Assembly (NCBI GenBank): GCA_965178125.1
Contig: OZ237738.1
Span: forward strand, 1,550,001 to 1,614,000
Reading direction: 5' to 3'
Length of the DNA stretch: 64,000 nucleotides
Source of the DNA: Bilabrum cf. latius
Taxonomy: Eukaryota
Shown here: positions 4,920-37,929 of the stretch, piece by piece
Layout: the number at the start of each line of letters is the position of its first letter
How positions within the stretch are numbered: position 1 is the first letter of the stretch
Translations under genes and position numbers: made by a program
Notes under the pieces: generated by a model
Database searches by the model: none
Seen by the model: only the letters and a program-made list of their open reading frames with translations
What the model was told of the DNA's origin: nothing

Positions 4920-4974
4920 CAGTAGGGAGTCGTGCACAGGTGAACGTCACGGTGGCTCACGAGTCGAGTCGAGC

Positions 4975-15939: not shown

Positions 15940-17853
15940 TCACGCTGGAGGCCTGTTCGTCGCGTTGGAGCAGACGCAGGAGTCCCAGACGGCGAGGCCG
16001 GGCTTGCCCTCGGCCCAGAACTGGTCTGCCTCTGTCTGGTTGTACGGCTTCCCGCAGCACGGAGCCACGCTCCAGTCAAGCGCTTCTAGCTGGCTGGGCA
16101 CCCTCACGATCGTGCTGTTGCGCTGGTCCCTTGCCTCAGTCATGCGGCGGGCCACCTGGGCGTAGGCCGGCTCCGTGGTGTTGAGCGGGTACTTCTCCCC
16201 GTAGTCCCACTGCATGTTGAACAACAGCGGGGGGTCGCGGGGCGTGGGCGGCTCGGTCCCAAACCCAGGCCTCGTCAGGAAGTGCGCCTTGTAGTCCACG
16301 CCCTCCACGCGGCCCCGCACCGCGTAGATGTCAGGGCCCCTCCAGTAGAAGAGGAAGTCGTGGAGCGGATCCGAGGGGGGGCTCCAGCGGTCCGCGGACT
16401 CTGCGGGGGAAGGTTCGCCGTCCTCCAGCAGCTGGGTCGCACTGGTAGAGGAGGACGAAGAGTTGCCAGCGGGTCGCAGCCAGGGCCAGAAGTCCCGCCC
16501 GTCGAGCCCCGCGGGTGCCTGCACGCCGGATCGCTTGAGGAAAGTCGGCATCACGTCCATCATGCTGGCGGGCTCCTGCACCTGCTGCCCGGGGGACACC
16601 CGTCCGGGAGCCCAAAGAGCGAACGGGACTTGCACGCCGCCCTGCTTACGACAGGTAGAAAGGACGCAAGGATTGAAACGAAACGTAGCTAGAGCGCGGA
16701 ATGCGGAGGGCAGGCGAGCACCGAGGCATAGATCATCCCTGGCTTCAAGCATCCAAGCGGCCAGCGCCCGCGAGGCAATTCACCCCTGTTCCTTCACACA
16801 AACATCACCCTTCTTTCTCACCTGATACGTGCTCCCCTTCTCCCCGCGGAGCTCCCCGTTCCTGCCCCCGAACTCGGGGTGCGTGGCAGCATCGAAGAAG
16901 CCGCTCGAGGGCGCCACCCAGGCCCCGTTGTCGCTCGTGAAGATCACCGTCGTGCTCTCCGCGATGCCCTGGGCCTCGATCTCCCGGAGCACCTGGCCCA
17001 CGGCCTCGTCCATCTGCAGGGTCATGTCCCCGAAGGGGCCCCTGCGGCTGGTGTTGCGGAACTGCTCGTTCACGTAGAGGGGCACGTGGGAGGACTCGAA
17101 GGCGAGCACCATGAAGAAGGACTGACCGGGGCGGGGACCCGGCTGGACCAGTCGCTGGGCCGGTGGCGGGACGTGCTTGGTGTCGTTTCCAGCCAGGCGG
17201 ATGACCTCGAGGGAGCGCTGCAGGTACCTGTCCGGCATGGCCAGCAGGTCCGCGGGCTGCTCCACCAGCTTGAGGTTCTCGTGGACGGAAACTGGGGGCA
17301 GCAGCACATTCTCCGGCGGCGGACCAGGGAAGCCTTCCTCGTGCGAGACTTGCAGGCCGTAGTAGTAGTCGAATCCTTTCTGCACGAGCGTGCAGTTGTT
17401 GCCTTCGTACGAGCCCGTGTGAGCCTTGCCGATGTAAGTGACGAACTGGTCACGTTCCTTCAACAGAGGTGGGAGTACGGTCGCGTTAGGATGAATGCAG
17501 CCCGTACTGACCGGCAAGAAAACCCTATAGATTAGGTCGAGCGGGTATCGCGTAGAAGTATACACCCCGTTTCTTGGCGACTCCACAGAGGTCAACAGCG
17601 CCGCCCTCCCTGGAGAGCACAGCGGAGCAGACATAAACTGAGTGAACGTGGCGCCCTCGTGGAAAATCCTGTCGATGTTCGGGGTGAACAACGTCTGCGA
17701 GCCTAGGGCAGAGATGTCGCCAATCCCCACGTCGTCTGCCATAATGATGAGAACGTTTTCCTGGCTAGTTTGCGAGGCACAGGCTGCAACCATTAATAAA
17801 GTTGCAGCCACTCCTGCTAAAGTTCTCATTTGTCTTAAGATGCCGCAATGCAT
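15940..17853 (-). CDS. Formylglycine-type (S1) sulfatase, arylsulfatase/GALNS-like; intron 16642-16821
   Basis: NVLIIMADDVG, TPNID, CSPGRAALLT (CxPxR), IGKAH, VIFTSDNG, LRGEKGSTYQ|GGVQVP, SMMDVMPT, PLLFN. Signal-peptide-like N-terminus; start may be 17829. Confidence 0.9.
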
Positions 17854-18753
17854 GATGTAAACTGCTGGGTGGCTCTGATATTTAACTCCGAGTTTTAGCC
17901 AGCAGACTTCGACAGTACGATTTGCTGCTCCCAGCGAGCACCATGCATACTTTTTGCTGGAAAAAACATGCTACTGATAGTCAATAGATAGTAGCCATGC
18001 CGATCAAGCGAAAAGTGAGGCTTAAACGGGTAGCAGGGAGCATTGTCAGGCAGGCCCGAGGCCTACCTTCGTGCGACCACCTGGCGACCACAGATTAGTC
18101 TAGGCGGGTCCCACGTGTGCGGCTCCAGACTAGGCTGCAGTGCGCTGCTTGTCCGTCTTATCACTGCTATGCGCTCCGGCATGCAGGCCACCAAACTCCA
18201 CTTAACTCCTCGATGCCCACTGCTCCACTAGCAGCTTGGGAGGTTTTCGAGGTTGCTGGAACCCTGCTCACCTTGTTGGTGTGCGCCCAAAGATGCACAA
18301 TGGCGCTAACCCAAAGGCTTCCGATGCTTCAAAGGCATCACGAGTTCATTAAAACTCGCCTATCCAGTCGTACGGTACTCATGGCCTATCCGGGCCGGGC
18401 GCGACGCGCACGACGGGCAGCACCGTGACAGTCGGCATCCTTGCGACCAAGTGCGACCACACGCCGGGGCCGAATCCTGGTGACGATGCCATAGTTGAGC
18501 AAGGGCGAACAGAACTGTATCACGACGGCGGCAACAGTAATTTAACGATACAAAGATTGCATTGCTGCGTCGATGCAACTTGGTGATCCACCGCAAGGTT
18601 GCCATACTTGTTGTCATCCATGTGAGTTGTGCATGCTCTGGAGGCTGGCCACGCTTTTTTTCGCATCAGGGACTGCACACTGCCAAGAATGACATGATAA
18701 GTGTACTACGACATCGCAGGAAGCCAAAGGTTATTCTAAATGGCTTCAGTGTA

Positions 18754-21700
18754 ATGTCAGCCCTGGCGTTTCTTCTATTTGGGGCGGCTATTCGGGCCCA
18801 AGGGTCTCGTATTGCAGTCCACGGGACAGGGTCACCGGCACCTAGTTCAGCAATCAATGATATGGTGTCGCTATATCGCTTGCAGGACGAAAATGTCGTG
18901 AGTTCGGTTCGCGTTCGTGTTCCTGTTCATTCCAGCTGCAGTGACGTTGCAACGCTAGGAGGCCTCAAGGAACTATTTGTGCATTATCTCGAACCAGGCT
19001 GATGATATACGATTTGAAATACCCTTAACCCCCGCTATCATGAGCTGGACTTTACTCGCTGCCGCAGAGCATCTTGTACGCCCCGTATACTTCCGATGCT
19101 GGATTCGAGGCGATTACCAGAGTGGAAACGGATTTTGCAGGTAGCTCAATTCCCCCTCCGTCTTCGATTTATGAAACCTAGACTGATATTCAAGCTGTGC
19201 CCGCCCTAGCGTCGGCAATACTACCCGTGTACAACATACAGTTGCTACCAGCCAATGGGTCGGACAACCCGTTGCGCCCTCCGGCGAACATGGAGATAGC
19301 ACCCGGAGTTGTTGTCGGGGAAAGGTTGATTGTTTCCAGTGAAATCCTTGCCGACATATTTGAGGGCAGGCTGTCTCGATGGAACGATCCACGGCTGCAG
19401 GCGCTGAATCCACACATCAGCTCTAGGCTACCGAGCACTGGTATCATCAGGGCTGTCCGAACAACGAGCAGCGGCAAGACTGAAGCATTTGCTGGATTTC
19501 TCGCGCAGTCGTCGGCTTCCTTCATCGTATCCGCCATCGATGTCTCGGAGGATGCCACCCTGTCGCTTCCTGCGTGGCCGGAAGGAAACACAACATTCGC
19601 TCTGCCCGGGGCCGCCAATGGGAGCGCAGTGGGGGCAGGCCCTCTGCCGCCAGGGGAATACGCAACCACACGGCTGGTGCGGGCACGGGGCACGTCTGGC
19701 GTGGCTGACGTGGTGGTGGGGACGCCTGGGGCCATCGGGTATATCGCTGCAGATGAGGCTGTGGAGCGGGGCATGACCAGCGCGCTGCTGCTGAATCGAG
19801 GAGGCCGCGTGGTGGACAGCACCGCGGAGGCAGTCACGGTCACGCTCATGGAGCGGGGCGCCCGCTTCGACGAGCGGCTGACTGCCTCTTTGCTGGGAGC
19901 CGAGTCTGTGTTTGCGTGGCCTTTGGTAGGGTACACGTACGTGGTATGGGCCATGGAGAGGAGCCGCAGCCTGAGGCAGGAGGCCGTGAGGCTGGGGCAC
20001 GAGGACTCGCTGGCTGGTGAGCTGGCTTTGTCGAGGGAGCTGCAGGGGCAGGGGAGGGAGGGGGCGGCGCGGCTGCGGGAGCTGTGCAGGCCCAAGCTGG
20101 AGGCAGCCAAGTTCTGGCTGTGGTCTTACGGGAGTGAGGCGGTGGCTGGGATGATGCGCAGCCGTGGGTTTGTGCCTGTGACCACGTTCGTCCGGGATAC
20201 GGTGAGGAACAGGCTGCGGCGCGGGCTATTTTGCGGAGGCCTGCCCCTGTTCGAGCGCACGGGGGTGCAGGGCATTGTGGGAACCGGATCGGAGGACCTG
20301 ACGACGTACGTGAATCTGGTGCGGTTCGGGAGGGCCGTTGTGAATCCTGGAGACACGCCTCTGGCCACCATCAACGAGGCGCTGTTCCTGCAGAACGACG
20401 AGCTGGTGGAGTCCTTCCAACCCCTCAACTCAACGGACAGGAGGCTCGAAGCCGCCGCAGGCTCGAGCCGCGACTCGAAAGAGATCCTTGCCAATAGTGA
20501 TGGCATTGCCTCGTCCTCATTGGAGCCATCCACGATAGAGCGAGGCACGGCACCAACGCTGGCTCGCATCGCAGGATCGGGCCCCTGGTCTCGGCTGTCG
20601 CCAGACCAACCATCCCTTTCGTGGCCGGACGATCTGATCGGGTCGAGCGAAGATAGCCTTATCGGCGCGCTTCGGCGCTCGCTGGCCGATGGAACCGAGG
20701 CGGGGCGGGTGAAAGAGCTGCGGCGCATGCTGCAGACAGCTGCAGGGCAGTCTGCTGCCTCCAGCCAGCCATCCACGCCAGAGTACGGAGGGCTAGACCC
20801 TGGATTTGCGGTGGCACTCTGGGCGGGCTGCGCCGACTTGGCAGCTCAGATGGTGATCCCGGGGGGGAACGTGCCTCTGAGCGATGTGGCGACCCGCGCC
20901 GGCCTGCCTCCTGGTGTGGCGCTGGCCAGCGCGCAGCTCCTCGGTGCCACCCTGACCCCGCTGCTGCCCGAGCAAGAGAACCTGCAGGCTCCGGTGAGCA
21001 CGTGTGGAGGCGTGGGCCCAGGGGCCGTTGGGCTCGAGGCGATTTTAACCCTGCTGGGCATGCACTCGATATTTCGACAGAACGCCAACTTGCTGCAGGG
21101 GCTCACTGGACCCTACGGAGAGCGTCAGATTCAGGACGCGCTGGACCCAGCCAGCGCCGAGCTGCCGCGCCCCGGAAGCCCCATCCCCCCAGCCATCTCT
21201 GCGAGCCGAGAGGGCAATCCCTACCTGGATGGCTCTGTGTATCTGCCGGACATGCCCTGGCAGAGCTACCCGCAGATGCTGCGCCCGGAGCTGTTCTTCG
21301 AGTTCATCCCGTACCCCGTGGCTGTCGCGGGCCAAGGGTTCGTGTACACGCTGGCATCACTCGATGCAGCCAGGGACTGGGGCCCAGACCCGGGCGATCC
21401 GACCTCGGCGGCCTCGCAAGCCCCCGCCCTTGCATTCTGCTGGAAGACAATCGCTGGCATTCTGTCGGGGAATGTGACTCATTGGGACGACTCGCTGGTG
21501 CAGGCGGACAACCCGTGGGCTGCAGGGCTGCTCCCGCATGTGCCCATCACCGTGATCTTGCCGCCGTTCCCATCATCAGCTATGTATACATTGGTCGAGC
21601 GTGCCTCGGCAGCTTTCCCGCCTTTTGCTGACTGGATACAGTCACGCCTGACGCCAGCTGCTCAGGTGGTAACGCCCATCTCCACAGCAGTGCCGACGTT

Positions 21701-24700
21701 CCAACAGGATCTGTACCCGGCTCACTTCATGCGGATGTAGTCCGTCTCAGGAGCAAAGAGCATCCTGTCGGCCACCGAGGGCGGCTTGCTGGTGGACACC
21801 ATCTCGCTCCCCAGCCCGGGCAGGGTGGGCCAGTTCCTGGCACATGTCAACGAATCCGCGGGCGCATCGCGAGTAGCAGACAGATGCAGCTCGCCAGATC
21901 CCCGTGCAACAGCTCCCCCAGGCATGGCCCGCATGCCGCTGTGCAGCGCGTCCATCGAGGCGTGCTTCGATGCCTCCCCGCTGGCCTTCAACGAGAGCTC
22001 GCTGCAGGTGAACCTGGGTGCGGCCTCTCTCGAGCAGCAGGTGGCCGTGGGCTGCTGGCCCATCACCTCGACGTACGTGGCGGTGCTGCCCAGGAGGTAT
22101 GCCAGCGCCGATGTGGCTGACACGTCGTCCTCGGCCGTGATCTCGGAAGGACTCAGGGACTACCGCACGGACCCGGATAGCTATGAGGCGCGGACTGGAG
22201 CTGGCAACCTGCTGCCGCTGCTGCCTCCGTGTGACCGCGGCCAGCGTGCCGCTGACCAGGTCAAATTTGGGCTGACTCAGGAGGCGCAGGACTACCTTGT
22301 GCGTTTCCCAGGACTCGGCGCCCTGCCTGAGCGAGCCCGCGCTGCGATCGAGCGGTCGCTGGATTTGGACCTGCTGTGCGGGGACCAGCCAATGGCTCGG
22401 CCGGTGGTGCAGTGCCAGGCAGGCGAAGAGCGGATCAGCTCCAGCCTTTGTCGAAGGTGCGTGGCAGGCACATTCATCCTGCCGGGCCAGGCATCGTGCG
22501 ATGAGTGTCCCCGGGGCGCGGTGTGTCCCGGAGGCGACCAGGTGCTGGCACGGCCGACGTACTGGCAGGATCCTGGCAGACTGACCACGCTGTACCCGTG
22601 CAGAGAGGGCGCGTGCTGCGAGAATCCGACGGGGTAGGGGGTATTCCGCGGGTGTTCCCTAGAAGACGAGGGCCGATGTGCTGACGATCGCTAGAGTGAT
22701 TCGCTCCTGTGCGCCAAGTGCCTCGATGGCCTACGGACGCTGGGAGGCAGGTGCTACGGCTCGTGCGACGCTCCTGCAGTTGTAGCTCGGCAGTATGGTA
22801 TTGGTGCTGCGATTGTGCTCGTCGCGCTGCTGCTCAACCTGCTCATGATGTACCTGGGGCCGGCAGGGCACTCTGGCCTCTTCAAGGTCATGGTCGATCA
22901 CGTGCAGGTGGCCTTCCTATTCCTGCAGGGAGTCAGCGGATCCATCGCTAACGTGCCGGCTGTGTTCGGTGTATCCGACGAGATCCCAGCCACGATGCAT
23001 GCGATGGCATGCTTGCTGGGCCCCAACAGCGAGTACCTGGCCCCAATCTCCCAGGGACTCGTGGCTCTCTTTGCTCTTGGCATGCTGCCCGTGATGTTCT
23101 CGATTGAGCTGGTCGGGAGGAAAGCACTCAAACTCGTTGTGTACTACTGCGCCCCGGATGAGGACGTGCAAGACTTTTCCCGACTGGCCCAATTGCGCAG
23201 GGTGACGGCCCTCGAGATGCACTCGAGGGCATGGTGCGGCTCTGCTGGATGCTGTCGAGGGACTCCGAGGCCTCGCTTGCAGCGCATCACGACAAGCGGT
23301 CATAGCTACGAGGTAGCAAGCAGTAGCTAGGTGGATACTGCCAGCTCTGCAGGAGTCCATGAGACACCGCGAGGGCCATTGGACCCCGAGGGGCGCCTTA
23401 CCGTGCCGGACTCGGCTCGACGGAACGCTCCCGATTCGGCCAGAGCATATAAGAAGTTGAATTGGTTCCGGACTGGCACCGATGTGGACATGAGATTCCG
23501 GGGCAGGTACTTCTGGGCTTCGTGGCGTATGCTGTTGATCAGCTACATGGCGGTTTTGCTGTCCGCGTTGTCGGTGCTTGATTGCAAGGACGTGGCAGGG
23601 CAGCGGCTGATGAGGACTGCGCCAGGTCTGCGGTGCGATTCGGGCCAGCACCGCACACCGTAGGCACTGGCAGTGATTGTGACTATCGTGGTAGCAGCTG
23701 CCTTACCCCTTTTTGTTGTTCTAGTCATGTATGACCAGCTGGGTGGCGAGACGGCTATACGGGTGGGTCGTTTCCAGGGTGCGAGTTTCTGGATGGCCAG
23801 GACCATCATGAAGGCCAAGGTGGCGCTGTCCAGGATACGGGGCGTGGGTCCGTGCTGCTGCGGTGGCATGGTCAGACAAAGGTGGTACAGAGAGTACGAG
23901 AATAGTGGCAAGGGCCTGCCTGGCGATGATCTAGTGCGGACGAACGGAGATCCGTTCCGGCTCATCGCCTTGAAGGACCGACAGAAGCAGATTAAGAGGC
24001 AAGCAATGCGATAGAAACCTAAGGATGAGCCCCCTAAAAGGAGCCACGGCGATTCTGTGGCCAGAGTGGTGCCGGCAGATGCATCTGACCTCACCCCCGG
24101 GGGTACACTTCGTCAAAGTGGCGTGCCTCAGCAGACAAAACGACGAGGAGCAAATCTGGCAAAGCTCAACGTGGAGGCAGAGCGGACCAGCTCAAGTGGT
24201 CGGGTCAAGCCGCTATCCACGCAGAGCAGGAGCAACTCGGGATCCGAGCACCCCTCCGGCAGTGAGGCAGAGGTGGCGGTAGCGCCAAGTACCCAAGAGG
24301 AGCCTCAGCTAGTGGAGGGCCGCAGCACAGAGAAACCCGAGGGCAAACAGAGCGAGAGCATGCATGCAGACATAGGCAGGGAAGTAGTCAAGCGCAGTGA
24401 TGACACGCGGCAGTTTGGCGCGCGGCGGGCCCGACCCATTCCTCAGATAGACATGGCAAACCTGTCCGCTAGCAAGTCGGCTGGGAGCGCGCACGGCAAC
24501 TCAGCGAGCGGACGCAACCCGTGCGCGAATGCTCCATCGATGGAATCAAGTATCCCCGGGGTTCGCTCCATCGGGTTAGATGTGGCATCCTCTGGGTATT
24601 CCCACGCAGCAGGTGGCTCCCAGGAGGTGGGACTGGTCACGCCCGAGCTGGCTCCAGGGGGACTGTCCCAGAGTCACTCAGATTGCCCCGACGCACCGTC

Positions 24701-26489
24701 TAGCGCACACGCCGGAGGCCGCTAGCGTGCTATGGCTGTTGGGCAGCGAGTTCAGCCAGCGGACCTTGCCGCTTCCCCACCCCGCATCCGTATACCTGGG
24801 AGCTCGATGCGGTCCCAGGGAGGAGGCAGGCCAGCGCGATCCAACACGGAGCTGCCACCGCAGCGCGCTCAGTCGGTGCAGCTGACCGTAGAGCCCACAC
24901 TAGTGGATGGACGGCCCACCAACGACTGGCGAGCCCACCACGGATCACATGATGGTCAGCTGGCGAGCAACCCAGCCACGAAGGCTCTCAAGAAGACCTA
25001 CAGTGGAAAGAAGCGCAAGAAGCGGGCGGCCATGGTCGTGACCCTGGCCGAGATGCAGACGGTCGGTCTGGAGCTGGCAGCATGGGTCAGGGAGCCATAC
25101 CGCCTATGGTTCGAGGGGTTCTATCTATTCCTCAAAGCGCTCATAGCTGTGCTGGCCACCATAATCCCATCCAGGGTGGGTGGCGTGCTTGTGGCATCTC
25201 TGGTGTTGCTCACGACAAGGCTAGTCATTACGCATTGGCGACCCTTCTACTAGCGGAGGTCCATGCTGGCGTTTGTGGTGAGCTCAATCGGGCTGGTAGC
25301 TGTGTCTGTGCTTGTGTTAGCCACAGAGGCCGTCAAGCAGGTGCTGGATCTGCAAGAGCTGGATAGTGGAAGCGATGCTGAGCGGGAGGCCTTCGCCGTG
25401 ATGAACGCCCAGTGGCTTCGAGACACGGCGTATGGGCTGGCCGCCGCCCCTGCCCCGATCCTGCTGTACCTCGCTGGGAAGCAGATCCTGGAGGCCTTCG
25501 GCTGCATCCATGTGGACGAGGCAGAGATCGAGAGGGAGGAGAGGGAGGGGAAGAGACTGACTCTGCAGGCTGCCAAGCTGAGGCAGCAGGCCGTGCGGCA
25601 TGCTGTGGAGCAAGAGGCGCAGCTGCATGGCGATGTCACAGGCGGTGGTTCGCCTCATGCTGGTGGCCAGACCAGAGAGGGAGTCGAGGGTGGAGTGCCG
25701 GGCACAAGGCCAGCGCGGCCTGCCATTGGGCTGCTGCTCCCGCCCGTGACACCCGCCAGCCGGACCGCCAGCGAGGGCTCCAGCCAGTACAGCGCAAGCC
25801 ACAGCAGACGCGCCAGCACTGATTTCAACGAGTGGGACGGCGGGTCTCTCAGCGACGACGGGCGGGGCAGCGTGTCGGACAGCATGTCCCTGTCTGCCTC
25901 CACCCCGAACCCGAGGAACAGGATGATCCTGTCTAGGCGGGTGCGCCGCATGTCCACCCTCAGCGACACTAGGCGATCGGCTCGCATGTCCGAGTACGAC
26001 GCCTCCCAGCGCACCGTTGTGGATGGGGAACACGACCAGGAGGAGCACGAGCAGGTGCTCCAGCATGGTGGTGCAGGCAGTGGCGGCGGCAGCTCGTCCA
26101 TGGAGAAGAGCGGGGGGGGCGGGAGGGAGGGGGCATCTCCAGTGCAGGAGGTGGTGCTGGCCAGCAGCGACATGGAAAGAGAGGGGGTTCTCTTGCCTCA
26201 GGGTGCCACCCCGCCCCCCTTGACCCCTGCCGGCATGGATGCCCCTTCCCCCTCTCGAGTGGGCCTCCTGAGAGTGGAAATGCAGGGGGAACTGGACCCA
26301 CCGCCGGCCCCTGTCTCCAACCTGGTTCTGGTTGGAGGTCAGCCGGAGTCAAGGCGCTCCTCGAGCGGGAGCGTGTCGCGAGGCGGCGCGGGGGAAAGGC
26401 ACCTGAGGCGGAATGGGTCTAGTGAGGGCGGCAGCGTGCTGCCGACTGTCCGGTCTGCCAAAGCGTTGCAGTACTTTAGGGGAACATGA
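18754..26489 (+). CDS. Receptor-like protein A, ~2520 aa: two PstS/PBP2-like domains, Cys-rich repeats, multi-TM domain; intron 18898-19067; 9 in-frame TAG
   Basis: Eight ORF fragments lie in one frame separated only by TAG. PstS-like DFAGS, ADIFEGRLSRWND..LQALNP, VRTTSSGKT, TPGAIGYI, AWPLVGYTY; a second copy IAGILSGNVTHWDD..CWPITST; CRRCVAGTF..CDECPRGAVCPGG; several hydrophobic segments. Ends at TGA. Start could be 18694. Confidence 0.8.
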
Positions 26490-26669
26490 ATTGAATTGAT
26501 AGGCCACTACCCTAGTTTCTGCGTATTTGCTTGAAGCCAATCCGACGCTGCGACCACTCTGTCGCTGCTAGCCTGGTGCAGGTGTGGTCGCGACCAAAAT
26601 ACTCGTCACACCTTCAAGAAGCACAACCGACACAAGCAGAGAGATTTCAGTGCCCGCATACACAGCACC

Positions 26670-28862
26670 ATGGATAGCCTGAGTCCCGGCAACAGGGACC
26701 ATTTATTGACATAGATGGCCCTTTTGGACAAAGAATCGAAGGCTCGCCCACCTCCTCCGCCGCGAGACAGCCATGGTCGAACTCCTCGCCAACAGAAACA
26801 AGGTGAGCACCTGCTTCGATGGCTTCTCCATGTGCCGTCTACGTGCCTCGTGTTGGCACGTCCTAAGCTATTCAAATTAATATTTTAGCAAAGACCGTTC
26901 CCGTGCGGCGCAGCAACTACGGGATACCATTCGAGTCCGTACCGCGATTCTAGCCGCAAATAGATTATGCCGCTGTCACCCTGGGATGATGAGGCAGATC
27001 CCATACCGTAGGAGTATTAGCCAAATTTGTTAACCACAAGCAGTGCAAGTGGGGCTCCGACTCCACCTTCGAAACAGAAATTGCCGCAGTCGTTGCGAGA
27101 GTGCCACGCACTGCTGATTGAGCAACGTCGCCAGATTCAAGAACAAAATACCATATCTCGCGAACTTAGGGACCGTTTGCAGGCAGCTGAGCAAGAGGTC
27201 AGCGCGCTGAGGCTGCAAGGCAAGGTCGCAGAATCGCAGCAAAGCGAAGGAATGGCTGCTCTTCAGGAGGACAACCGCAGGCTCGAACTCGAGGTCCAAG
27301 CCCTCAGGACCGAGAAAAAAGAACTGCTGCAGCGTGCTCTACAGAGCTCTCGTCGCGCGCGGCAAGCCACTGCTCAGATGGCCAAGGCGGCATCGAGCTC
27401 CTTCGCCCAAACCATCGAAGCAGCTGCTTCCGCCCGAGCGGACGCCCGGGAGCGAGACCGCGCCTTCGGGTTCCTGCCAGAGGACGAGGAAGCACTAGCG
27501 CAGGATAGTCCCGCCAGCTGGGGCGAGAGGGGCGGCACCACGAGCGGCCTGCCCCGCGGCTCGCAGGGCCGGGCAGGTCAGGGCGGGGTGGGTGGTGCAC
27601 CGGTGGCTGGGTCTGGGTCTGCCAGTGGGGAGGACGTCGTGGCAGAGCAGGTGCGGCGGAGGGCCAGAGAGGCGGCCGATGCTCTGTTGGCATCGTCCAC
27701 CACGCTGCGGCAACGCCGGGCGGGCAGGCTAGGGGCAGATATTGCTGCGGGGCAGCGGCTGGCTCGGGAGCAGGAGGGCATGCAGCAGCTCCCCGGGGCC
27801 ATCTCAGTGGCCGGGACCGTGCCAGCGTCTGCCCAGGATAGGATCGCGGCCAGGAGCCGGAGCCAGGCAGGGGAAGGCGCATCGCAGGAGGGCGGCAGGA
27901 CGTCAGGCCCCTCGATGGTGCCACCGCTGGCTGACCACCTCAAGAGCCCAGCGGGGCTGAGGCCCTCTGCCTCGGCGAGGACAGCGGCCATGGCCAGAAG
28001 AAGCAGGTATGACGGCGCATTCCCGCCGACTCCATCCCCTGCCGTGCTGCAGCCAGGGTATGGAGGGTTCTAGTCTCCGCGAGGAGGTCCCGGGGGTGCG
28101 GGGGGCGGCTATGGAGGAGGGTATGGAGGCAGCGGCAGTGGGTACGGAGGCATGCAAGGGAGCAGGGGTCTATCCAGGCATCCGCTGCGTGACTATCCCT
28201 CCGGCACCTTTCGCGCGAGCAGGGGCAGCGGCAGGCCCATGGGAGGTACGAGGCCGGGGACAGGGAGGGCAGGGACTGGGGCCCCGCCCGGGCTGGGGGA
28301 TGCGGGACGAGGCCGCTCTAGGGGAGGCAGCGTGCAGAGCCCCCCGGGGCCACAGGGCATTGCGCTGGACCAGCTGGTGCCCGTGACGTTCGATGGGGTG
28401 CCCGTGTCTGCGCCCTACCACGAGCAGCCCTTTATGTGGTGTGCCATGCAGGGGATCAAGGCTATCAAGCACTGCGGGTGGCCGGGCAAGCCGCACGAGA
28501 AAATCTTCTTTTTGGATTTTTCCGACCTGCAGAACCCCTGCCTGAGGTGGAGCTCTCCGCCCACGGCCTCTATCGAGGGCAGCAAGGAAGTGAGTCTGTT
28601 CTCCATCGACGAGGTGTCCAAGGGCTTCGTCTCGCCCAAGCTGGAGAGGTATGGCAACGAGGGGCTGGAGGGGCTATACTTGGTCTTCCGATGCGACCAG
28701 GGGCAGCGCACACTTGACCTGGAGTTGGAGCAGGAGGCGGACAGGGACTGGTTCTACAAGGGGTTCAACGCGATGCTGGCGGCGTACGCGGGGCTGCTGC
28801 AAAGAGGACAGCTGGATGGGCAAGTAGTAGACAGGATACGGGCCGAGGTGGACGGGAAGTGA
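26670..28862 (+). CDS. Coiled-coil, low-complexity protein with C-terminal PH domain (PLC-PH/Mcp5-PH-like); probable intron 26803-26913
   Basis: 27027..28073 and 28152..28862 join across a TAG. C-terminal GIKAIKH..KPHEKIFFL..LRWSS..SIDEVSKG..RTLDLE..DRDWFYKGF resembles a PH fold. The 5' exon is inferred from GTGAGC...CGCAG in matching phase. Confidence 0.7.
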
Positions 28863-29086
28863 CGGCCGAAGTTGCTGCCCGTTTGCATCGAAATTGACCT
28901 AGGCGTTTTGTATGTTGGATTCCAGCCATCAAAGCCAGCATTGCCTACGATAGTAAACCGCGCGCTGCCCCCTCCGCAGGGGGCTGCAACAGCATGGATG
29001 TGCAATCTTGCATTTGTCAAGTCAAGAATCATCAGGAGAGACTGAGCTGAACAGTCAAACTATCTTTTCCTTGCCATGTTTTCGTT

Positions 29087-32000
29087 TCATTGTCCCTAAT
29101 TGTCACCCACAGCCGGCAAATCATTGGAGTTTGCCCATGCAAGCGATGGCCTTCTGACCCGATGCTGGCCCCCAGCTTCATCTTTACTGCGACCATGTTC
29201 AAAAGATGGAACTGAAGTAGGAGGAGGCATCTCATGAAACTCGATGGGCCCGTCCGTGGCGTTACTAGAGTCTGAATAGTGAGGCGATCGGTCGGGCTTC
29301 GACCCGCTCCGCATGCTAAATCCGCTGGCGACCGAGGCCCCGTCATCCAGCTGCGACATGCGGCGCACCCCAGCCCGTGTCAAACCACTTGCGTACGACC
29401 TGTTATCATCTGAGCCATTCCGCGACCCCAACCCTCCTGTGTTGATGCCTTTGCTGCTGCCCTGCGAAGACCTCCCCCACTTGGACTAGCCCTCGGACAC
29501 GCGGCTCCCCATTGTGTCTACGCTGTGGATGCTCTGCATGCTGCTCGATGACAGGCGACGCGCAAACGCCAAGCCAACGTGCTTGCTTCGAAGTCGGCGA
29601 ATCTAGCCGATTGGGGGCGCATGCCCATGCCCGGTGCTGTGCTGTTGCTAGTCCTGCGACTCTATGGCCCGCGCCTTCTGCCTGAGCTTCTCGGCCTTCT
29701 CGGCAACCTTGGCTTCCCGCCTGGCTGCCCTCTCCTCGGATGCCTCGTCCACATGGATGCAGCCGAGCACTTCTAAGACCTGCTTCCCAGCGAGATACAG
29801 CAGGATCGGGGCGGGGGCGGCGGCCAGCCCATACGCCGTGTCTCGCAGCCACTGGGCGTTCATCACAGCGACGGCTTCTCGCTCTGCGCTGCTTCCACTG
29901 TCCAACTCCTGCAGGTCGAGCACCTGCTTGACGGCCTCGTTTGCAAGCATCAGCATGGACACAGCTACTAGACTGACGGAACTCACCACGAACGCCAGCA
30001 TTGACCTGGGCTGGTAGAACGGCTGCCAGTGCGTGATGAGTAGCCTTGTTGTGAGCAGCACCATAGATGCAGCCAACACGCCTCCTACTCTTGACGGAAT
30101 GGTGGTTGCCAGCATTGCAATGAGGGCTTTGAGGAATAGATAGAATCCCTCGAACCACAGGCGGTAGGGATCTTTGACCCATGCGCCCAGCGCGTTGCCC
30201 ATCGACTGCATGTCGGCTAGAGACACGATTGTAACAGGCTAGCGCTTCTTCTTACTCTTCTTGCCCGTTTGTGACGGCAATCCCACGCTCATATCTACTA
30301 CGCCATTTGATGCCTGTCCTCCGCGGTGTCGCTAAGAGCTCCAGGCCGGTGACCGCAGGCCGGAAGTGCTGGTGACCGCAACCCTAGATTCAGCAGGCCA
30401 CTGCCTCACCGCTTTCGGTACGCGCCGCCCAGCTACTTCCCCAGATGAGGACCGTGTGCGCGCGTTGGTGCGGCCATTTACTTTTGCAGTGGTCTCAGTC
30501 TCCGCAAACGAGCCCCTACTCGACTGAGACATGGTCCTCGTCAGATTCAGCGACCCACCATCGTCCAGAATACTAGGTTCTACCTGGCCGACCACATCTT
30601 CTTCATCCTGCATCGGGGCGCTATTCTACACGGGGGAGCCAACACCTGCATCGAGGCCCCCGTGCGGGCCTAGCAGTCCTGATGCCACACTCGAGGAGTC
30701 GTGCTCGTACTTCTGGCCCTCCCGTGCCTGTTCTACCTGCGAGGCAGTCGGCAAGTTCAATGCTGGTACCGCCACTGCATTCGCCTCTGCTCTAGAGCCA
30801 GAATACGGTAAGATTGCCCGACTAGCAGCCCGACCCCTAGGTTTCCCCTTTCTCCTTCCTTTTCGTCGCGCCTTCAGCGCGAGCAGCCGGAAAGGATCTC
30901 CGTTCGTTGCCACCAGCTCGTCACCCGGCAAACCCTTACCCCTGCCCGTGTGCAGCCTGTACCATTTCTGCCTGACCATGCCACCGCAGCAGCACGGACC
31001 CACGCCCCGTATCCTGGACAGCGCCACCTTGGTCTTCATGATGGTCCTGGCCATCCAAAAACTCGCACCCTGGAAGCGACCCACCCGTATAGCCGTCTCG
31101 CCGCCCAGCTAGTTGTACATGACAATAATTAGGACGGCAGGTAGAAAAGCACCAAAAATTGCGATGACAAAGGCGGATAGTCCAGCAGCCAGGTGGTGCG
31201 ACTCGCTGTCGCAGTCAATCCCGGGGGACGTCCTCATGAGCCGCTGTCCCGCCACCACCTTGCAGTCCAGCACCGACAGAGCCGAAAGCACAATTGGCAT
31301 GTATGCGATCAGGAACATCCGCCAGGAGCCCCACAGGTATTTCTGCAGGAAGTCCATGTCGATGTCCGTGCCAAGAGTGGCCCAGCCAGTGGCGAGCTCG
31401 CCCACCCCAGTGTTGAGCTCGAGGTCACGTGTGGCAATCACCTCAACAGCAGGGGATGCTGCGGGCCCACCTTCCTCGTCTTGGAGGCTACCAGCTCCTA
31501 CATTTCCTGAAGCATCCTAGTCATGCAGGTCCAGCGACCTGTTGCTGCCGAGGCTGTTGGACGCGCTGTAGGATCCGTGCTCTGCAATGTGCCTAGCAGC
31601 ACGGCAGCAGCCACCGGTCCCGCAAAAAACCCGGGCCATGATCTCTGCACAGCCAGCGCTCACAACGGCTGCATCCACTCTAGCTTTGGCCATGTCGTGG
31701 CTCGGACAGCAGTAGAATATTGCAATCTTGAGCGACTTTCGGCTGCCCATCTCGACGAGCAGCATCACTGGCATCATTCCCAAGGCAAAGGAGCCCAGTA
31801 GTCCCTGGGAGATTGGGGCCAGGTACTCGCTGTTGGGGCCAAGTAGACAGGCCATTGCATGCAGGGTACCCGGCATCTCGTCAGATACACCGAAGAGCGA
31901 GGGGATGCTAGCAATGGAGCCATTCACCCCCTAGAGCAGCAGAAGGGCTACCTAAAAATGACCAACCAATACCTTGAATAAACCGGAATGTCCCACGGGC

Positions 32001-35000
32001 CCCATCTGCAAAAGCAGACAATTGAGAATCGCACACATTACCACTAGCGCAGAAGCCACAAGCCACTGCCGCCGTCGCATGGTGACCGAGTCGCACGTCT
32101 CAAAGCAACGCCCACCAAACGTCCGGTGTCCCGGAGCACACCTGCCGCAGATGGGGGATGCGATATCCCGGGTAGCAGCACATCGAGACGTGCTGTTGAT
32201 CGAACAGCCCCGGAAGTTACCATGAGCATCAGGGCTCTCGCAGCAGGCACCGGCAGGGCACGGATACAGCCCGAGGATATCGTCAGGGTCCTGCCAGTAC
32301 GTCGGCCGTGCCAGCACCTGGTCGCCTCCGGGACACACCGCGCCCCGGGGACACTCATCGCACGATGCCTGGCCCGGCAGGATGAATGTGCCTGCCACGC
32401 ACCTTCGACAAAGGCTGGAGCTGATCCGCTCTTCGCCCGCCTGGCACTGCACCACCGGACGAGCCATTGGCTGGTCCCCGCACAGCAGGTCCAAATCCAG
32501 CGACCGCTCGATCGCAGCGCGAGCTCGCTCAGGCAAGGCGCCGAGGCCGATGGAACGCACAATCCGCTCCGTGGCGGTCACTGTCAGTCCGAACTTGACC
32601 TGGTCAGCGGCACGCTGGCCGCGGTCACACGGAGGCAGCAGCGGCAGCAGGTTGCCAGCTCCAGTCCGCGCCTCATAGCTATCCGGGTCCGTGCGGTAGT
32701 CCCTGAGTCCTTCCGAGATCACGGCCGAGGACGACGTGTCAGCCACATCGGCGCTGGCATATCTCCTGGGCAGCACCGCCACGTAGGTCGAGGTGATGGG
32801 CCAGCAGCCCACGGCCACCTGCTGCTCGAGAGAGGCCGCACCCAGGTTCACCTGCAGCGAGCTCTCGTTGAAGGCCTACGGGGAGGCATCGAAGCACGCC
32901 TCGATGGACGCGCTGCACAGCGGCATGCGGGCCATGCCTGGGGGAGCTGTTGCACGGGGATCTGGCGAGCTGCATCTGTCTGCCACTCGCGAAGCGCCCG
33001 CGGATTCGTTGACACGTGCCAGGAACTGGCCCACCCTGCCCGGGCTGGGGAGCGAGATGGTGTCCACCAGCAAGCCGCCCTCGGTGGCTGACAAGATGCT
33101 CTTCGCGGCCGCAATCGTTGATGCCCTGATGAATCGATCCGGATACACATCCTCGAACAGATCAAGCGGCGCTTCTGGGTCCAGCTGTCGCTCAGCTGCA
33201 AAGCTAGGCACCTCCACAGCCAGTTTGCTAGCCACCGCCTGCAATGTATAAGATGGGAACGGCGGCAAGATCACGGTGATGGGCACATGCGGGAGCAGTC
33301 CTGCAGCCCACGGGTTGTCCGCCTGCACCAGCAAGTCATCCCAATGAGTCACATCGCCCGACAGGATACCGGCGATCGTCGTCCAGCTGAATGCAAGATC
33401 CGGTGCATCCTCCGCATCGCTGTCTGGGTGCACAGTGCTCCAGTCCCTGGCCGCGTCAAGCGTGTCCAGGGTGTACTCCACAGCTTTCCCAGCCACTGCC
33501 AACGGCATGACCATGTACTCGAAGACATGATGCGGGTCAAGCCCCTTGGGGTCCTGCTGCCAGGGCATGTCTGGCAGTGACACGGTGCCCTCCATATACA
33601 CCGTATCTGCAAGAGGGTCTTCCACCGTACTCAGCATGTCATTCGACTCGCTCCAGTCCTGCTGAGTGATCGACCCGTTGGCTCCTGTGGCCGTCTGCAG
33701 CATGAAACCGCCTCCGCCACTTCTCTCCCGAATGCTCTTGAATGCCTCCAGCGCGACACTGCCGATCGCACCCGGCCCGCTGCCACCGCACGTCTTCACG
33801 GCGGCTGTCACCGGATCCACTTGTGGTAGCACAGCCTGTACCGCCGATGCCATGGCCGATGCGTTGGCCAGTCTCACGCCAGGAGGCAGCCCCAGACTGG
33901 AGACCAGCCCTGCATCGGGACTCGCGCTGCCGTCCACCACCAGCTGAGCAGCCAAATCCACGCAGCCCGCCCACGTCGCAATCACGTTGCCGGGATCAAG
34001 CCCCGCACCGTGACCAGACTAGTCCTGGCCTGACGACGACAGCTGCCGAAGCATCCAGCCCGCATATCCGGCCACGCGAGGATGTGGCAGTGCCCGCTCG
34101 AGTCGCAGCAGCCGCCCAGTATCCCCATGCTGCTTCAGCCGCCTGCTCTCAGACGGAGCCAAGCGCACGCCATTCAGCACAGACCCAGACTCCTGCTCCT
34201 GGCCAGGTGCCGCAATCTCAACGGCGGTGGCCAGAGGCGTGTCTCCAGGATTCATCACAGCCCTCCCGAACCGCACCAGATTCACGTACGTCGTCAGGTC
34301 CTCCGATGCAGTGCCCACAATGCCCTGCACCCCCGTGCGCTCGAACAGGGGCAGGCCCCCGCAGAACAGACCCCCCCGCAGACGCTCCTCCACGATGCCG
34401 CGCACGAACGGGGTCACCGGCACAAACCCACGGCTGCGGATGGCTACATTCACGGCCTCGCTGCTGTACATCCACAGCCAGAACTTGGCTGCCTCCAGCT
34501 TGGGCCTGCACAGCTCCCGCAGCCGCGCCGCCCCCTCCTCCCCCTGCCCCTGCAGCTCCCTCGACAAAGCAAGCTCACCAGCCAGCGAGTCCTCGTGCCC
34601 CAGCCTCACGGCTTCCTGCCTCAGGCTGCGGCTCCTCTCCATGGCCCATACGATGTACGTGTACCCTGCCAAAGGCCACGCGAACACAGACTCGGCTCCC
34701 AGCAAAGAGGCCGTCAGCCGCTCGTCGAAGCGGGCGCCCCGCTCCATGAGCGTGAAGGTCACGCCCTCCGCGGTGCTGTCCACCACGCGGCCTCCTCGAT
34801 TCAGCAGCAGCGCGCTGGTCATGCCTCGCTCCACAGCCTCATCTGCAGCGATATACCCGATGGCCCCAGGCGTCCCCACCACCACGTCAGCCACGCCAGA
34901 CGTGCCCCGTGCCCGCACCAGCCGCGTGGTTGCGTACTCCCCTGGCGGCAGAGGCCCTGCCCCCACTGCGCTCCCATTGGCGGCCCCGGGCAGAGCGAAT

Positions 35001-35806
35001 GTTGTGTTTCCTTCCGGCCACGCAGGAAGCGACAGGGTGGCATCCTCCGAGACATCGATGGCGGATGCGATGAAGGAAGCCGACGAATGCGCGAGGAAGG
35101 AGGCGAAAATCTCCGTCGTCCCGCTGCTTCGCTTTCGAACTGCCCTGATGATGGCCAGATCGGGGAGTCGCGAAGCAACGTGCGGGTTCAGCTGCTTGAT
35201 TCTCTCGTCGTTCCATTTGGCGATCCGCCCTTCGAATATGTCAGCGACCAAGGGCCCAGAGAGCACCAAGCGGTCCCCGACGTCGACCCCTGGCGCAACA
35301 TTCGGGACCTCTGGAGCACCAGAACTCAATGAATTAGTAGCAGGAAGGTCCAATGTATACACAAGAACAACTGCAGCGGCGAGGGCTGGAGCCGCTTGCA
35401 GATCGCTCTGGGCTTCGTACTCGGTTTCTCGCACCCGATCGCTCCCTGCGAAATCCACGGAGTTTGCCATGATGGCTCTGACCCCCGAGCTGGATCCAAT
35501 GGCATCGTATGATAGTGACTGCGATGGATAGGGGCTTATCTCTCATTTTTTCAAATTTGGCTGAATACCATGAGGGGCTTGTCGCGACACAGCCACTGAA
35601 TTGACCTTGTTTTAGCACCAACTCACCACTTCTATATTATTTAAGGAGTAGTATCTAATTGCATCATTGTACGCCCTATAAGGTAGGCCTGCACCTGCTC
35701 CCAACACCTTAATGGTTTGTTCTGAACTAACAGCGGTGCTGAGCAGAAGGAATGCTCCTTGCAGTACCGCGAGCGCAATACCAACGCTTGGCAAGATATT
35801 TTTCAT
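29087..35806 (-). CDS. Receptor-like protein B, ~2200 aa, paralog of A; intron 35519-35626
   Basis: Signal peptide, then PstS-like LGAGAGLPY, YDAIGSSSGV, VDFAGSD, LVLSGPLVADIFEGRIAKWND, VRKRSSGTT, GAIGYI. All fragments are in one frame broken only by TAG. Intron is at the same position as in A. Ends at TGA. Confidence 0.82.
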
Positions 35807-36110: not shown

Positions 36111-37929
36111 TCACTCTGACGTTCTAGGCGCAGCTTCAGCAGCCTCTCCGTCGCTAGAATCCAGCGTAGTGCCCAGTTCCGTACCGTGCTCGGCCTGCCT
36201 GGCGGTGGTGCCAGCCAGATCACCTGCCTTTGGTAGCCTGTCCAAAACGTTTTCAGCAAGTCCCGTGGAAGATGCTCCATCCTGCGATGGAATCTCCTTA
36301 GCCCCCTTTTCTCCCGCCTTGATACTCCCGCCTCCCTGTCCCCCACTCCTGGGCCTCACCGCCAGGATGAGCGCCCTCTGCATACGGTCCCACCTCTGGA
36401 ACTAGCCGTCATATGACGACTCCTCTGCCCATGCGACACCCACCAGCACAACCATGAGTAACAGTCCTATTCCCAGCACCACTAGGCTCTCCGCCCACCC
36501 GGGCTCGCCCTACTCTGAGTCGGCTCGGAGACCGGCGCTGGCTGCCACCACTGGCCCCAGCAGGCTGGCCGCACTGAAGCAGACGTGCATCAGCGCGGCC
36601 CATGCCACCAGGGGCCACGGTGACGGCTCCTTGTACACCGTGTACCTGTGCCACGGGATCCTTGAAGGGGGCCTCGAGGTGGAGCACCCGCAGCACCCTG
36701 CGCTACTGCAGCCATCACCCCTGCCCCTGCCGGTGTTACCGTGCTCCCCATCCCGGCCAGCAGCACCATCGCCCTCCCATGCATCCTCCTGCAGCAGCTC
36801 ATCCTGCTCCCTCGTCCACACCGGCAGTTCCTCCTCCCCAACTTCCCCCCTGTAGCCCCTCCCCGCGCCCTATTGGCCCCCTACCCCACCGCCATCGCCC
36901 CAGCAGCAGCAGCCCGCCCACACGCAGCTGCACGTGACCCACGAGGCCCACCCCGCGCGTCCATTTGCCTCCAAAGCGGCCTCTTTGTAAGCCCTCTGGT
37001 GCCTCCCCAGCACCACCTTCGCCACCCCATCGAACTGCGTCCTGGCGCGGTACACCACCAGCAGAGCGCTCCTGACGCTGTCCGCTCGCAGCCAGGCCAG
37101 GGCCACCACGGCGGAGCAGGCCATGTGCACGGGGACTCCTACCAAAACCCGAGCGGCTGCTGTCCACGCTGCTGCCTTCCAGCCGCTGGCAGCTGCCTAC
37201 ACCGCGCTGAAGAGCAGCGCCTCGCCGAGCCCGAATCCAAGGGCAGCTGCCATGAGGCCGTGAGGGCGAGCCAAAGGCAAATAGAGCAGCTGCTTCCTAC
37301 CAAGACGCTATAAAGCCCTTCTCTTTGCTTCGCTGGGAAGCAAGGAAGAGGACGACGCAGTCGAAGACGGTTGTAAATCTGCTTTTTCGGCCGCCGGGAG
37401 CAACACCCACCTAGCCACAATGGCAGCAAGCAACTTGACGGGTTCCTCAATCACACCTGCGAGCACATATCGCAAATTATTAAGTTGGGGTGTTGGTATG
37501 CTTTTGAATAGGAAGATTCCGGTGGTGCCAGGATTTGAAGCATGCACACAAATCCTCACCAGCAGCCAAGACAGATACTACAAGTACAGCCACCGCAGAA
37601 CCCATACTACCATCCAGCGTGAAAGCATGTGATACACTATCTGCTCCGAATACGCGCTAAACAGCCCACGCAGTGAACCCTTCAGCCAATGTAGCTATCG
37701 GGAAGGCGAATAGCACGCCGAAGCAGAAAGAGGTTAGGCTCAGCTTTACAATCGCAGACAGGTGCGCTTCCGCACTAGGTATATAAGTAGATTGATGTAG
37801 CCAAATAAATGCCGGAATGATGGGCACTAGCGATAAAGCGGCAGCCGCTCCTCGGCTTGGTTCTATGGCAGCAAGCCACACCAGAACTGCCAGAGACGTG
37901 ACAGAAATTGTTGCCAGACACCCATACAT
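36111..37929 (-). CDS. PrsW-like intramembrane protease family protein; intron 37457-37559
   Basis: With TAG read-through: multiple TM segments and ordered motifs AGVIEEPVK, ALGFGLGEAL, RVLVGVPVHM, AALMHVCF, matching the PrsW EExxK / FxxxE / H / H pattern. Confidence 0.68.

Follow-up and report, generated by a model that had tools for sequence, protein, structure and literature searches.

Two convergent paralogues, here called genes A and B, were analysed in a stretch of nuclear eukaryotic DNA from Bilabrum cf. latius (assembly GCA_965178125.1, contig OZ237738.1, positions 1,550,001 to 1,614,000 of the forward strand). The whole stretch of 64,000 nucleotides (nt), which has a G+C content of about 62%, is referred to as the window. 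Gene A (18754-26489, plus strand) and gene B (35806-29087, minus strand) encode proteins of 2521 and 2203 amino acids (aa), respectively, and each has a single coding intron. We give an even chance to the reading that each protein is a type I multi-pass surface protein that senses a tetrahedral oxyanion outside the cell, which for B would most likely be orthophosphate. In the proposed mechanism, domain 1 (D1) would be a PstS-type Venus-flytrap closing upon ligand, and domain 2 (D2), whose phosphate loop is gone, would serve as a PstS-derived structural or dimerisation platform. A disulphide-rich stalk resembling TNFR and ephrin receptors would rigidly couple this ectodomain to a membrane module of about nine transmembrane (TM) helices. 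The state of the module would be read in the cytosol, and the output that we favour would be passage of ions (Ca2+) through a module with a distant likeness to the fungal Pkd2/Flc 'TRP-like' proteins, with long phosphorylatable Ser/Arg-rich loops and the tail modulating the flux. We infer the ligand, the coupling by the stalk and the role as a sensor rather than a transporter; the channel-type output is suggested far more tentatively.

The features of both genes are given below, with in-frame TAG codons read as glutamine (Gln). X5 and X6 are public sequencing runs, and names beginning with P denote proteins that were compared with A and B.

18622-18719, plus strand: intron in the 5' untranslated region of A (GT..AG); seen in one X5 contig only, which joins 18621 to 18720
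18754-18897, plus strand: exon 1 of A, with ATG, signal peptide (residues 1-16) and the first PstS strand with GxGS; donor GTGAGT; 18897 and 19068 joined in X5 and X6
18898-19067, plus strand: coding intron of A, 170 nt, GTGAGT..CAG; predicted from the frame and exactly skipped in X5 and X6
19068-26489, plus strand: exon 2 of A, to TGA; nine in-frame TAG
18802-20270, plus strand: PstS domain 1 of A, residues 17-449, across the intron; PF12849 E 7.1e-11, TIGR00975 E 1.2e-30
20271-22382, plus strand: PstS-like domain 2 of A, residues 450-1153, degenerate, with a disordered insert; from hhalign
22383-22778, plus strand: Cys-rich stalk of A, residues 1154-1285; 14 Cys in 127 residues, CxxC pairs
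22779-25520, plus strand: TM module of A, residues 1286-2199; from hydropathy
25521-26486, plus strand: cytosolic tail of A, residues 2200-2521; Ser/Arg-rich, disordered, three R[RK]x[ST] sites, without family
35627-35806, minus strand: exon 1 of B, with ATG, signal peptide (residues 1-28) and the motif GAGAGLP
35519-35626, minus strand: predicted coding intron of B, 108 nt, GTGAGT..CAG; from the frame and PstS homology
29087-35518, minus strand: exon 2 of B, to TGA; 13 in-frame TAG
34325-35722, minus strand: PstS domain 1 of B, residues 29-458, across the intron; PF12849 E 1.1e-14, TIGR00975 E 3.9e-34
32477-34324, minus strand: PstS-like domain 2 of B, residues 459-1074, degenerate; a row of the D2 profile
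32084-32476, minus strand: Cys-rich stalk of B, residues 1075-1205; aligns with the stalks of P0025, P0027 and P0028
29744-32083, minus strand: TM module of B, residues 1206-1985, about nine helices; from hydropathy and AlphaFold2
29090-29743, minus strand: cytosolic tail of B, residues 1986-2203; from the translation

The upstream exons of both genes encode the signal peptide and the first PstS strand. Hydropathy in the signal peptide of B peaks at 2.19 (residues 3-28), and the hydrophobic start of A is shorter. The first-pass annotation had set a PstS match of the N-terminal domains as a test of its proposal, and domain 1 indeed matches Pfam PBP_like_2 (PF12849) with 42.8 bits in A and 55.3 bits in B, above the gathering cut-off of 27. 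Moreover, domain 1 of B matches the solved PstS of E. coli with an E of 1.4e-22, and the closest bacterial sequences to domain 1 show 31-33% identity. Domain 1 is a PstS homologue that scores below the equivalog level of TIGR00975. Single hidden Markov models detect domain 2 weakly (E 9e-3 for Pfam and 9e-4 for TIGR00975). A profile of four D2 sequences (A, B, protein P0005 from Heterosigma akashiwo and the environmental protein P0025) was aligned by hhalign with the D1/PstS profile over 247 columns (probability 97.7%, E 2.1e-12), and at this profile level the comparison revealed that domain 2 is of PstS ancestry. The phosphate loop R..SGTT is lost in all four D2 sequences, with 'ILPPFPSS' in its place here, and it is likewise missing from the translated D2 of an orthologue on the metagenome contig L001.

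For the ligand site, we take Thr10, Phe11, Ser38, Asp56, Arg135, Ser139, Gly140 and Thr141 to be the ligand residues of E. coli PstS. Domain 1 of B retains equivalents of six of these eight residues in the motifs GSSSG (Ser38), DFAGSD (Asp56) and RKRSSGTT (Arg135, Ser139, Gly140 and Thr141). The L001 orthologue has the same ligand motifs as B, plus GATLP in its first exon. On the basis of these motifs, gene B encodes a credible candidate phosphate binder.

The stalk of A matches DUF7631 below the cut-off (E 6e-4), and Ephrin_rec_like matched five of 20 relatives weakly, the best of them with an E of 0.003 and a score of 17.8 bits, below the cut-off of 23.1. The compact homologue P0034 was modelled by AlphaFold2 with a predicted local distance difference test (pLDDT) score of 78.7 and a predicted TM-score (pTM) of 0.71; the stalk in this model has a pLDDT of about 90, and Foldseek listed OX40 and TNFR1 as similar to it, with probabilities of 0.57-0.92 and E 0.028-0.11 (OX40: 0.92, E 0.028). 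Kyte-Doolittle hydropathy and the AlphaFold2 helices give a count of eight to nine TM helices. TM1-3 come first and are followed by a loop in the cytosol, TM4, a two-Cys beta-hairpin, TM5, a Ser/Arg-rich loop of 300-440 residues (440 in A) and TM6-9. In an 881-residue segment of B comprising stalk and TM module, AlphaFold2 placed helices at residues 86-112, 120-140, 171-211, 329-358, 380-411, 724-747, 751-771, 778-807 and 843-858. The mean pLDDT of this model is 58.8; the helices are confident, and 360 of the 881 residues are below 50. Ser and Arg together make up 21-24% of the residues of the loops and tail, which have pLDDT values below 50. Lys/Arg-rich stretches follow TM3, TM5 and TM9 and precede TM6, and neither residue occurs in the TM2-TM3 loop, a distribution that fits a topology with the N terminus outside and the C terminus inside. 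The tails of A and B have diverged to 18-42% aa identity per 50-codon window. Searches of the TM region and the tail against Pfam and NCBIfam, at E up to 10, returned no family, and the module of about nine TM helices is unclassified. An ionotropic-glutamate-receptor-like design was rejected because the TM segments do not interrupt the binding domain, and a kinase or cyclase receptor because a catalytic domain was not found. Thus, the anatomy that the first-pass annotation had read from the letters (signal peptide, PstS domain, degenerate PstS domain, CxxC stalk, multi-pass TM region with Ser/Arg-rich loops and disordered tail, with no ABC or cyclase domain) is borne out by profile, hhalign and hydropathy evidence and by the blank Pfam and NCBIfam searches.

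These parts belong to a single polypeptide rather than to separate genes because the frames of A and B are open without interruption over 2481 and 2151 codons, respectively, because putative cDNA contigs run colinearly along gene A (see below), and because two relatives show the same succession. The first is the frame on L001, which has 1418 codons with 15 TAG, spans D1, D2, stalk and TM1-3, and is 47% identical to the window protein in the best segment. It adjoins an orthologue of the sulfatase gene that neighbours gene A and, matching the arrangement of gene A, is its positional orthologue. The second is P0025 (1408 aa), labelled as a phosphate-binding protein, in which a PstS domain, a degenerate PstS domain with LVPP, the stalk and the same TM module follow one another, the giant loops being absent. 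At the sequence level, the whole architecture is therefore conserved in other organisms. In public protein collections, close relatives are present only as fragments, and none of 7999 candidates from a word-indexed protein search was a full-length relative (1169-3723 aa). The probable cause is that gene callers split TAG-containing genes.

A search with the module profile retrieved seven proteins, all hypothetical and with chytrid names. For instance, P0028 is HK101_009817 of Irineochytrium annulatum. The chytrid proteins have a homologous stalk and TM module (20-24% identity) and share with A and B the stalk motif CPGG..W, the helix WR..L..Y and the hairpin LDC..V.G......P...C. However, they have a single ectodomain of the glycine-betaine type (OpuAC), are 553-928 aa long and lack giant loops; OpuAC itself was detected in four of the seven (P0028, P0032, P0033 and P0035; E 5.8e-9 to 1.7e-3). 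The stalk and TM module are thus a cassette that is combined with other solute-binding domains. The reverse combination is found in Heterosigma protein P0005 (UniRef100_A0A7S3Y1L5), where tandem PstS domains, the second degenerate and without R..SGTT, precede a 7tm_3 domain (PF00003). In a D1 tree of 16 rows, picked by similarity to the query, D1 of A, B, L001, Heterosigma and P0025 formed one group with a support of 99/99, whose nearest neighbours were the PstS-like proteins P0004 and P0006. P0005 thus shares with A and B a D1 of common origin as well as a second, degenerate PstS domain (VVPP there, ILPP here). Because tandem PstS and OpuAC ectodomains also sit on class C 7TM domains, the membrane module of A and B is probably a transducer and not a solute path.

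Proteins that combine PBP_like_2 with 7tm_3 have been described in Spizellomyces (SPPG_06488; PMC3251606) and as fusions in Plasmodiophora brassicae (PMC4815078). Moreover, PMC3251606 places OpuAC and PBP_like_2 on fungal 'Glutamate' G-protein-coupled receptors (GPCRs). A PstS-type ectodomain on a receptor is already catalogued and not new per se. Like A and B, the PBP_like_2/7tm_3 proteins have a signal peptide, and their PstS domain is joined directly to a multi-pass membrane domain. They differ in having a recognisable 7tm_3 domain and no ephrin-receptor-like stalk, whereas A and B have a Cys-rich stalk, an unclassified module of about nine TM helices and, owing to the disordered loops, twice the length. 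The metazoan class C GPCRs (CaSR, mGlu and TAS1R) share with A and B the order of Venus-flytrap, Cys-rich region and helical membrane domain. However, their flytrap is of the ANF_receptor kind (type I) and that of A and B is a tandem PstS (type II), and in A and B both NCD3G and 7tm_3 stay below thresholds and the helices number eight to nine rather than seven. Thus, of the class-C-like layout with another binding fold that the first-pass annotation had proposed, the order of the modules holds, but the PstS domain on a receptor is no novelty and the TM module cannot be recognised as a 7tm_3. Bacterial PstS of the PstSCAB system shares its fold and most ligand motifs with domain 1 of B; it is a free periplasmic protein, whereas in A and B it is the N-terminal part of a membrane protein in a eukaryote, in tandem and with one copy degenerate. 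No functional study of the PBP_like_2/7tm_3 proteins or of members of this family was found in the literature.

Genes A and B form a mosaic in which blocks with 97-99% nt identity (0-3 synonymous differences per 50 codons) alternate with regions of 40-60% identity. The near-identical blocks are:

19527-20126, plus strand (A), equal to 35068-34469, minus strand (B)
21768-22517, plus strand (A), equal to 33091-32342, minus strand (B)
23736-23885, plus strand (A), equal to about 31111-30962, minus strand (B)

Synonymous sites share the high identity of these blocks, and the pattern suggests that gene conversion still acts between the two inverted paralogues, including part of D1. The contigs of all four sequencing runs that were aligned to the region break at the borders of the identity blocks. 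In TM6-9, three 50-codon windows show 15/11, 18/8 and 11/5 synonymous/non-synonymous differences between A and B, counts that indicate purifying selection on these helices.

The link to the Pkd2/Flc proteins (PF06011) is a lead and not a finding. According to 10.1101/316380, Pkd2p of S. pombe has a signal peptide, an extracellular domain, a central TM domain and a cytosolic C-terminal domain, an outline shared with A and B. However, the Pkd2/Flc ectodomain is ML-like, whereas that of A and B is a solute-binding protein. The ESM Atlas neighbours of the P0028 and P0025 TM modules fall into eukaryote-only clusters (haptophytes, ciliates, oomycetes and chlorophytes) with scores of 0.85-0.92; some of these clusters carry PF06011 on 12-25% of their members, and some of the latter also carry Ephrin_rec_like on 78-90%. 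More speculative, and on the whole doubtful, is the proposal that A and B represent an undescribed pan-eukaryotic receptor class with a bacterial-type solute-binding ectodomain (PstS in A, B and an environmental protist, OpuAC in chytrids), a TNFR/ephrin-like Cys-rich stalk and a module of about nine TM helices outside 7tm_3 and all other Pfam families, the PstS version of which would be a plasma-membrane phosphate sensor that, by Pkd2/Flc-like gating of ion entry, triggers the Ca2+ signals evoked by phosphate in P-starved microalgae.

Several observations weigh against the oxyanion sensor with channel-type output. The TIGR00975 scores of domain 1 (106.7 bits in A and 118.1 bits in B) are far below the equivalog cut-off of 205. 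B has Gly for Thr10 and Leu for Phe11, the latter also in the L001 orthologue. Domain 1 of A (motifs GTGSPAP, PYTSDAG, DFAGSS and RTTSSGKT) has Ser for Asp56 and Lys for Thr141, with the first two motifs altered as well. Because the equivalents of Asp56 and Thr141 are replaced, phosphate binding by A is doubtful, and A may bind another ligand or none. For the membrane module, PF06011 was detected in one of the 20 members of the module alignment (E 0.22) and, at E up to 10, nowhere in the TM regions of the window proteins, and shuffled sequences reach the above Atlas scores 4-10 times in 100. Foldseek searches with the models of B and P0034 gave no PDB match at E <= 0.001 (best E 4 for B), and the non-significant best matches of the better model, P0034, are class C GPCRs and not channels. 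Finally, one of the two runs that provide the putative transcripts described below, X5, was flagged as 'probably DNA' by the run classification, and the library types of X5 and X6 are unrecorded; among the public runs listed as containing this sequence, none is registered as RNA.

The same sensor could instead have a GPCR-like output, in which the first seven helices form a very divergent class-C-type 7TM domain to which two C-terminal helices are added. Signalling would then run through G proteins or arrestin-like partners, and the tail, together with the giant third loop in the cytosol, would provide phosphorylation platforms. We regard this alternative as unlikely. It would account for the order of flytrap, Cys-rich stalk and TM domain and for the Heterosigma protein, in which a true 7tm_3 bears this ectodomain cassette. 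Moreover, class C GPCRs make up 16 of the first 18 PDB matches listed for the P0034 model, the other two being an unspecified GPCR and OX40. A further point in its favour is the presence of two conserved Cys in the TM4-TM5 beta-hairpin and of a conserved Cys-x-x-Pro directly before TM3, an arrangement that presumably resembles the disulphide between TM3 and extracellular loop 2 of GPCRs. Weak NCD3G matches in two of the 20 module members (E 1.4e-3 and 2.2e-3) point the same way, with scores of 18-19 bits where the cut-off is 38.9. However, the class C GPCR matches (TAS1R, CaSR and others) have E values of 0.008-0.06, TM-scores of 0.09-0.17 and root-mean-square deviations of 16-30 A, and the model of B itself has nothing better than E 4 in the PDB. 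7tm_3 (PF00003) was found in none of the 20 module members at E up to 10 and not in the TM region of A, and hhalign of the module profile with the 7TM domain of Heterosigma P0005, a single target sequence, yielded a probability of 0.13% (E 0.44). NCD3G matched neither window protein. Finally, eight to nine helices are indicated instead of seven.

In bacteria, PstS is the phosphate-binding subunit that feeds an ATP-binding cassette (ABC) importer, and tandem binding domains fused to ABC importers are known, for instance in GlnPQ. A and B could accordingly be uptake systems, in which the fused PstS domains capture phosphate with high affinity and pass it to the TM module as the permease, as a eukaryotic equivalent of bacterial transporters that have substrate-binding domains fused to them, a possibility that we consider distinctly improbable. 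The conserved, divergently oriented neighbour of gene A, a secreted sulfatase-family hydrolase, would fit a nutrient-scavenging locus. Moreover, the authors of the Plasmodiophora genome (PMC4815078) termed the fusions of solute-binding proteins with 7tm3 'novel putative transporters'. However, ABC_tran, BPD_transp, PHO4, MFS and other transporter families are absent from both genes at E up to 10, and neither gene contains the ABC transmembrane or ATPase domains of fused importers of the GlnPQ/OpuA type. A search of PDB sequences with the module profile returned no transporter beyond chance (efflux pumps, E 2.1); only the OpuAC part of the chytrid proteins was matched (E 2.3e-8 to 0.013), and the TM part matched nothing. 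Disordered cytosolic loops of 130-440 residues are unusual in permeases, and the same ectodomains are found on GPCR 7TM domains, which do not transport. PstC, PstA and PstB were not found among six neighbouring frames scanned with Pfam.

It is also distinctly improbable that the PstS fold has been recruited for something else, be it sulphate, arsenate, phosphonate, an organic phosphate or a structural or adhesive role, with at least A not binding phosphate. The substitutions in A speak for this view, in particular the Ser in place of the specificity-giving Asp56, which we take to be the residue of PstS that excludes fully ionised anions, and the exchange of Thr for Lys in the SGT loop. So do the loss of the phosphate loop from every D2 sequence inspected, that of L001 included, and the conserved sulfatase neighbour. 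In contrast, the Asp and the SGTT loop are retained in B and in the L001 orthologue, and it is the latter that lies beside the sulfatase. Moreover, gene conversion between A and B that includes part of D1 makes entirely unrelated roles of the two proteins unlikely.

The frames of A and B are open only with TAG read as Gln. As the first-pass annotation had stated, the genes assemble only when TAG is read through: with the standard code, the DNA of the interval splits into pieces of at most 852 aa. With TAG as Gln, a frame of 2399 aa with eight TAG extends from 19290 to 26489 on the plus strand and one of 2127 aa with 13 TAG from 29087 to 35470 on the minus strand, and the frames of both genes terminate at TGA. 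Reading TAG as a sense codon produces very long frames throughout the window, including those of IF-2, telomerase reverse transcriptase (TERT), a Nipped-B-like protein and the sulfatase. All 15 long open reading frames (ORFs) tallied in the window, IF-2, TERT and Nipped-B-like among them, contain in-frame TAG, and they stop at TGA in 14 cases and at TAA in one. Five TAG codons lie opposite CAA or CAG in the alignment of A with B, and in a three-way alignment with the orthologue of another organism Gln occupies 11 of the 18 residues that face TAG in well-conserved neighbourhoods. In IF-2 and TERT, TAG codons occur within Gln-rich runs. The alignments reveal TAG as a Gln codon of the source organism. 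The single TAA-terminated frame (38169-45881, minus strand) has its stop at 38169-38171, followed by AT-richer, non-coding-looking sequence. From this frame it follows that TAG may be reassigned alone, without TAA, a code variant that is rare outside ciliates. Code variants in which TAG alone is reassigned are treated in PMC5304391. A tRNA scan of the 64-kb window found no tRNA with the anticodon CTA and a tRNA-Thr as the only tRNA. A five-codon upstream frame (ATG GCT TCA GTG TAA, 18739-18753) abuts the ATG of gene A in frame, and the protein would gain five N-terminal codons if TAA were sense.

Contigs of four public sequencing runs (X1, X4, X5 and X6) were aligned to positions 17500-27500 of the window. 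X5 and X6 behave like complementary DNA (cDNA) at the locus, and X1 and X4 like DNA. The intron at 18898-19067 is spliced out in contigs of X5 and X6 and retained in X1 and X4; the intergenic region 17834-18501 is covered by X1 and X4 and uncovered by X5 and X6. The putative cDNA contigs are colinear over six of the nine TAG codons of gene A (19179, 23328, 23661, 24012, 24723 and 25251) with zero letter differences. Provided that these contigs are cDNA, they demonstrate that gene A is transcribed and spliced, and their colinearity speaks against transcripts of separate genes, an outcome that the first-pass annotation had named as refuting its proposal. The loose end of an X5 contig leaves a block common to both genes and enters the B-specific sequence 35096-35125, a weak sign that gene B is also transcribed. 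The contigs inform on structure; expression level, depth and transcript ends are unreadable from them. The joints 21574/21756, 23059/23724 and 25647/26066 were rejected as introns because they have sides of at most 30 letters. X1 and X4 contain the first two as well, and all three are taken as assembly-graph effects of the A/B repeat. It is scarcely credible that the genes are artefacts, either frames opened by chance in GC-rich DNA or pseudogenes broken by real TAG stops: a G+C content of about 62% does yield many long spurious frames and the genes contain nine and 13 in-frame TAG, but TAG occurs in all 15 long ORFs and faces Gln at 11 of 18 aligned residues, the introns of A are spliced in the putative cDNA contigs, orthologues in two other contigs share the TAG reading, and TIGR00975 matches at E 1e-30 or better.

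According to our searches, the pairing of the stalk with the module of about nine TM helices, the occurrence of this module with OpuAC in chytrids, the half-degenerate tandem PstS shared with a Heterosigma GPCR and the occurrence of the family under a TAG=Gln code are new. No description of a solute-binding domain with an ephrin-receptor-like stalk and a non-7tm_3 TM domain was found in the literature, although the supplementary tables of PMC3251606 and PMC4815078 may list related proteins. A diatom signalling review from 2024 states that it is still unknown whether phosphate is sensed at the plasma membrane or internally (PMC11448323), and 10.1101/2020.05.13.090282 reports a Ca2+ response of microalgae to phosphate resupply. 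With an intact-looking PstS pocket on a membrane transducer, B is a directly testable candidate for a microalgal surface phosphate sensor. Moreover, one tandem-PstS cassette combined with two membrane modules, and one module combined with two bacterial binding domains, from chytrids to a TAG=Gln organism, present a clean case of modular receptor evolution out of bacterial parts. Gene callers that use the standard code miss this family in TAG-recoding organisms.

The other features of the window to which the text refers are as follows.

10823-10894, minus strand: tRNA-Thr(TGT), just upstream of the Nipped-B-like gene; the sole tRNA in the window
15943-17853, minus strand: secreted sulfatase-family gene, PF00884 E 6e-35; head-to-head with gene A
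26535-28862, plus strand: unrelated gene between A and B, without Pfam family; coiled-coil-like middle, Gly/Tyr-rich low complexity
36111-37733, minus strand: frame of a multi-pass membrane protein upstream of B; weak PrsW-protease match (E 3e-4), below the cut-off
38169-45881, minus strand: low-complexity frame, 2570 codons, 20 TAG
55605-60908, plus strand: TERT frame, Telomerase_RBD E 4.5e-25

The pairing of sulfatase and PstS receptor is kept on L001, where the sulfatase (3234-5072, minus strand) shows 70.8% aa identity over 631 residues. The sulfatase and gene A may be a co-regulated nutrient-scavenging pair. The interval 18754-35806, which the first-pass annotation had assigned to the receptor genes, ends exactly at the start codons of A and B, but it encloses the third, unrelated gene, whose intron at 26801-26911 is skipped in contigs of X5 and X6.

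Sequencing runs from other studies, filed under two other organism labels, contain near-identical sequence (68-84% of sampled words). The organism may co-occur with others, or its data may carry several names. Near the C terminus of the low-complexity frame at 38169-45881, GSEGKDGQDGDD(A/T)AAA-like units are repeated in tandem. Near codons 300-400 of the TERT frame, about 90 Ala-Gly dipeptides follow each other in a run that derives from a coding microsatellite.

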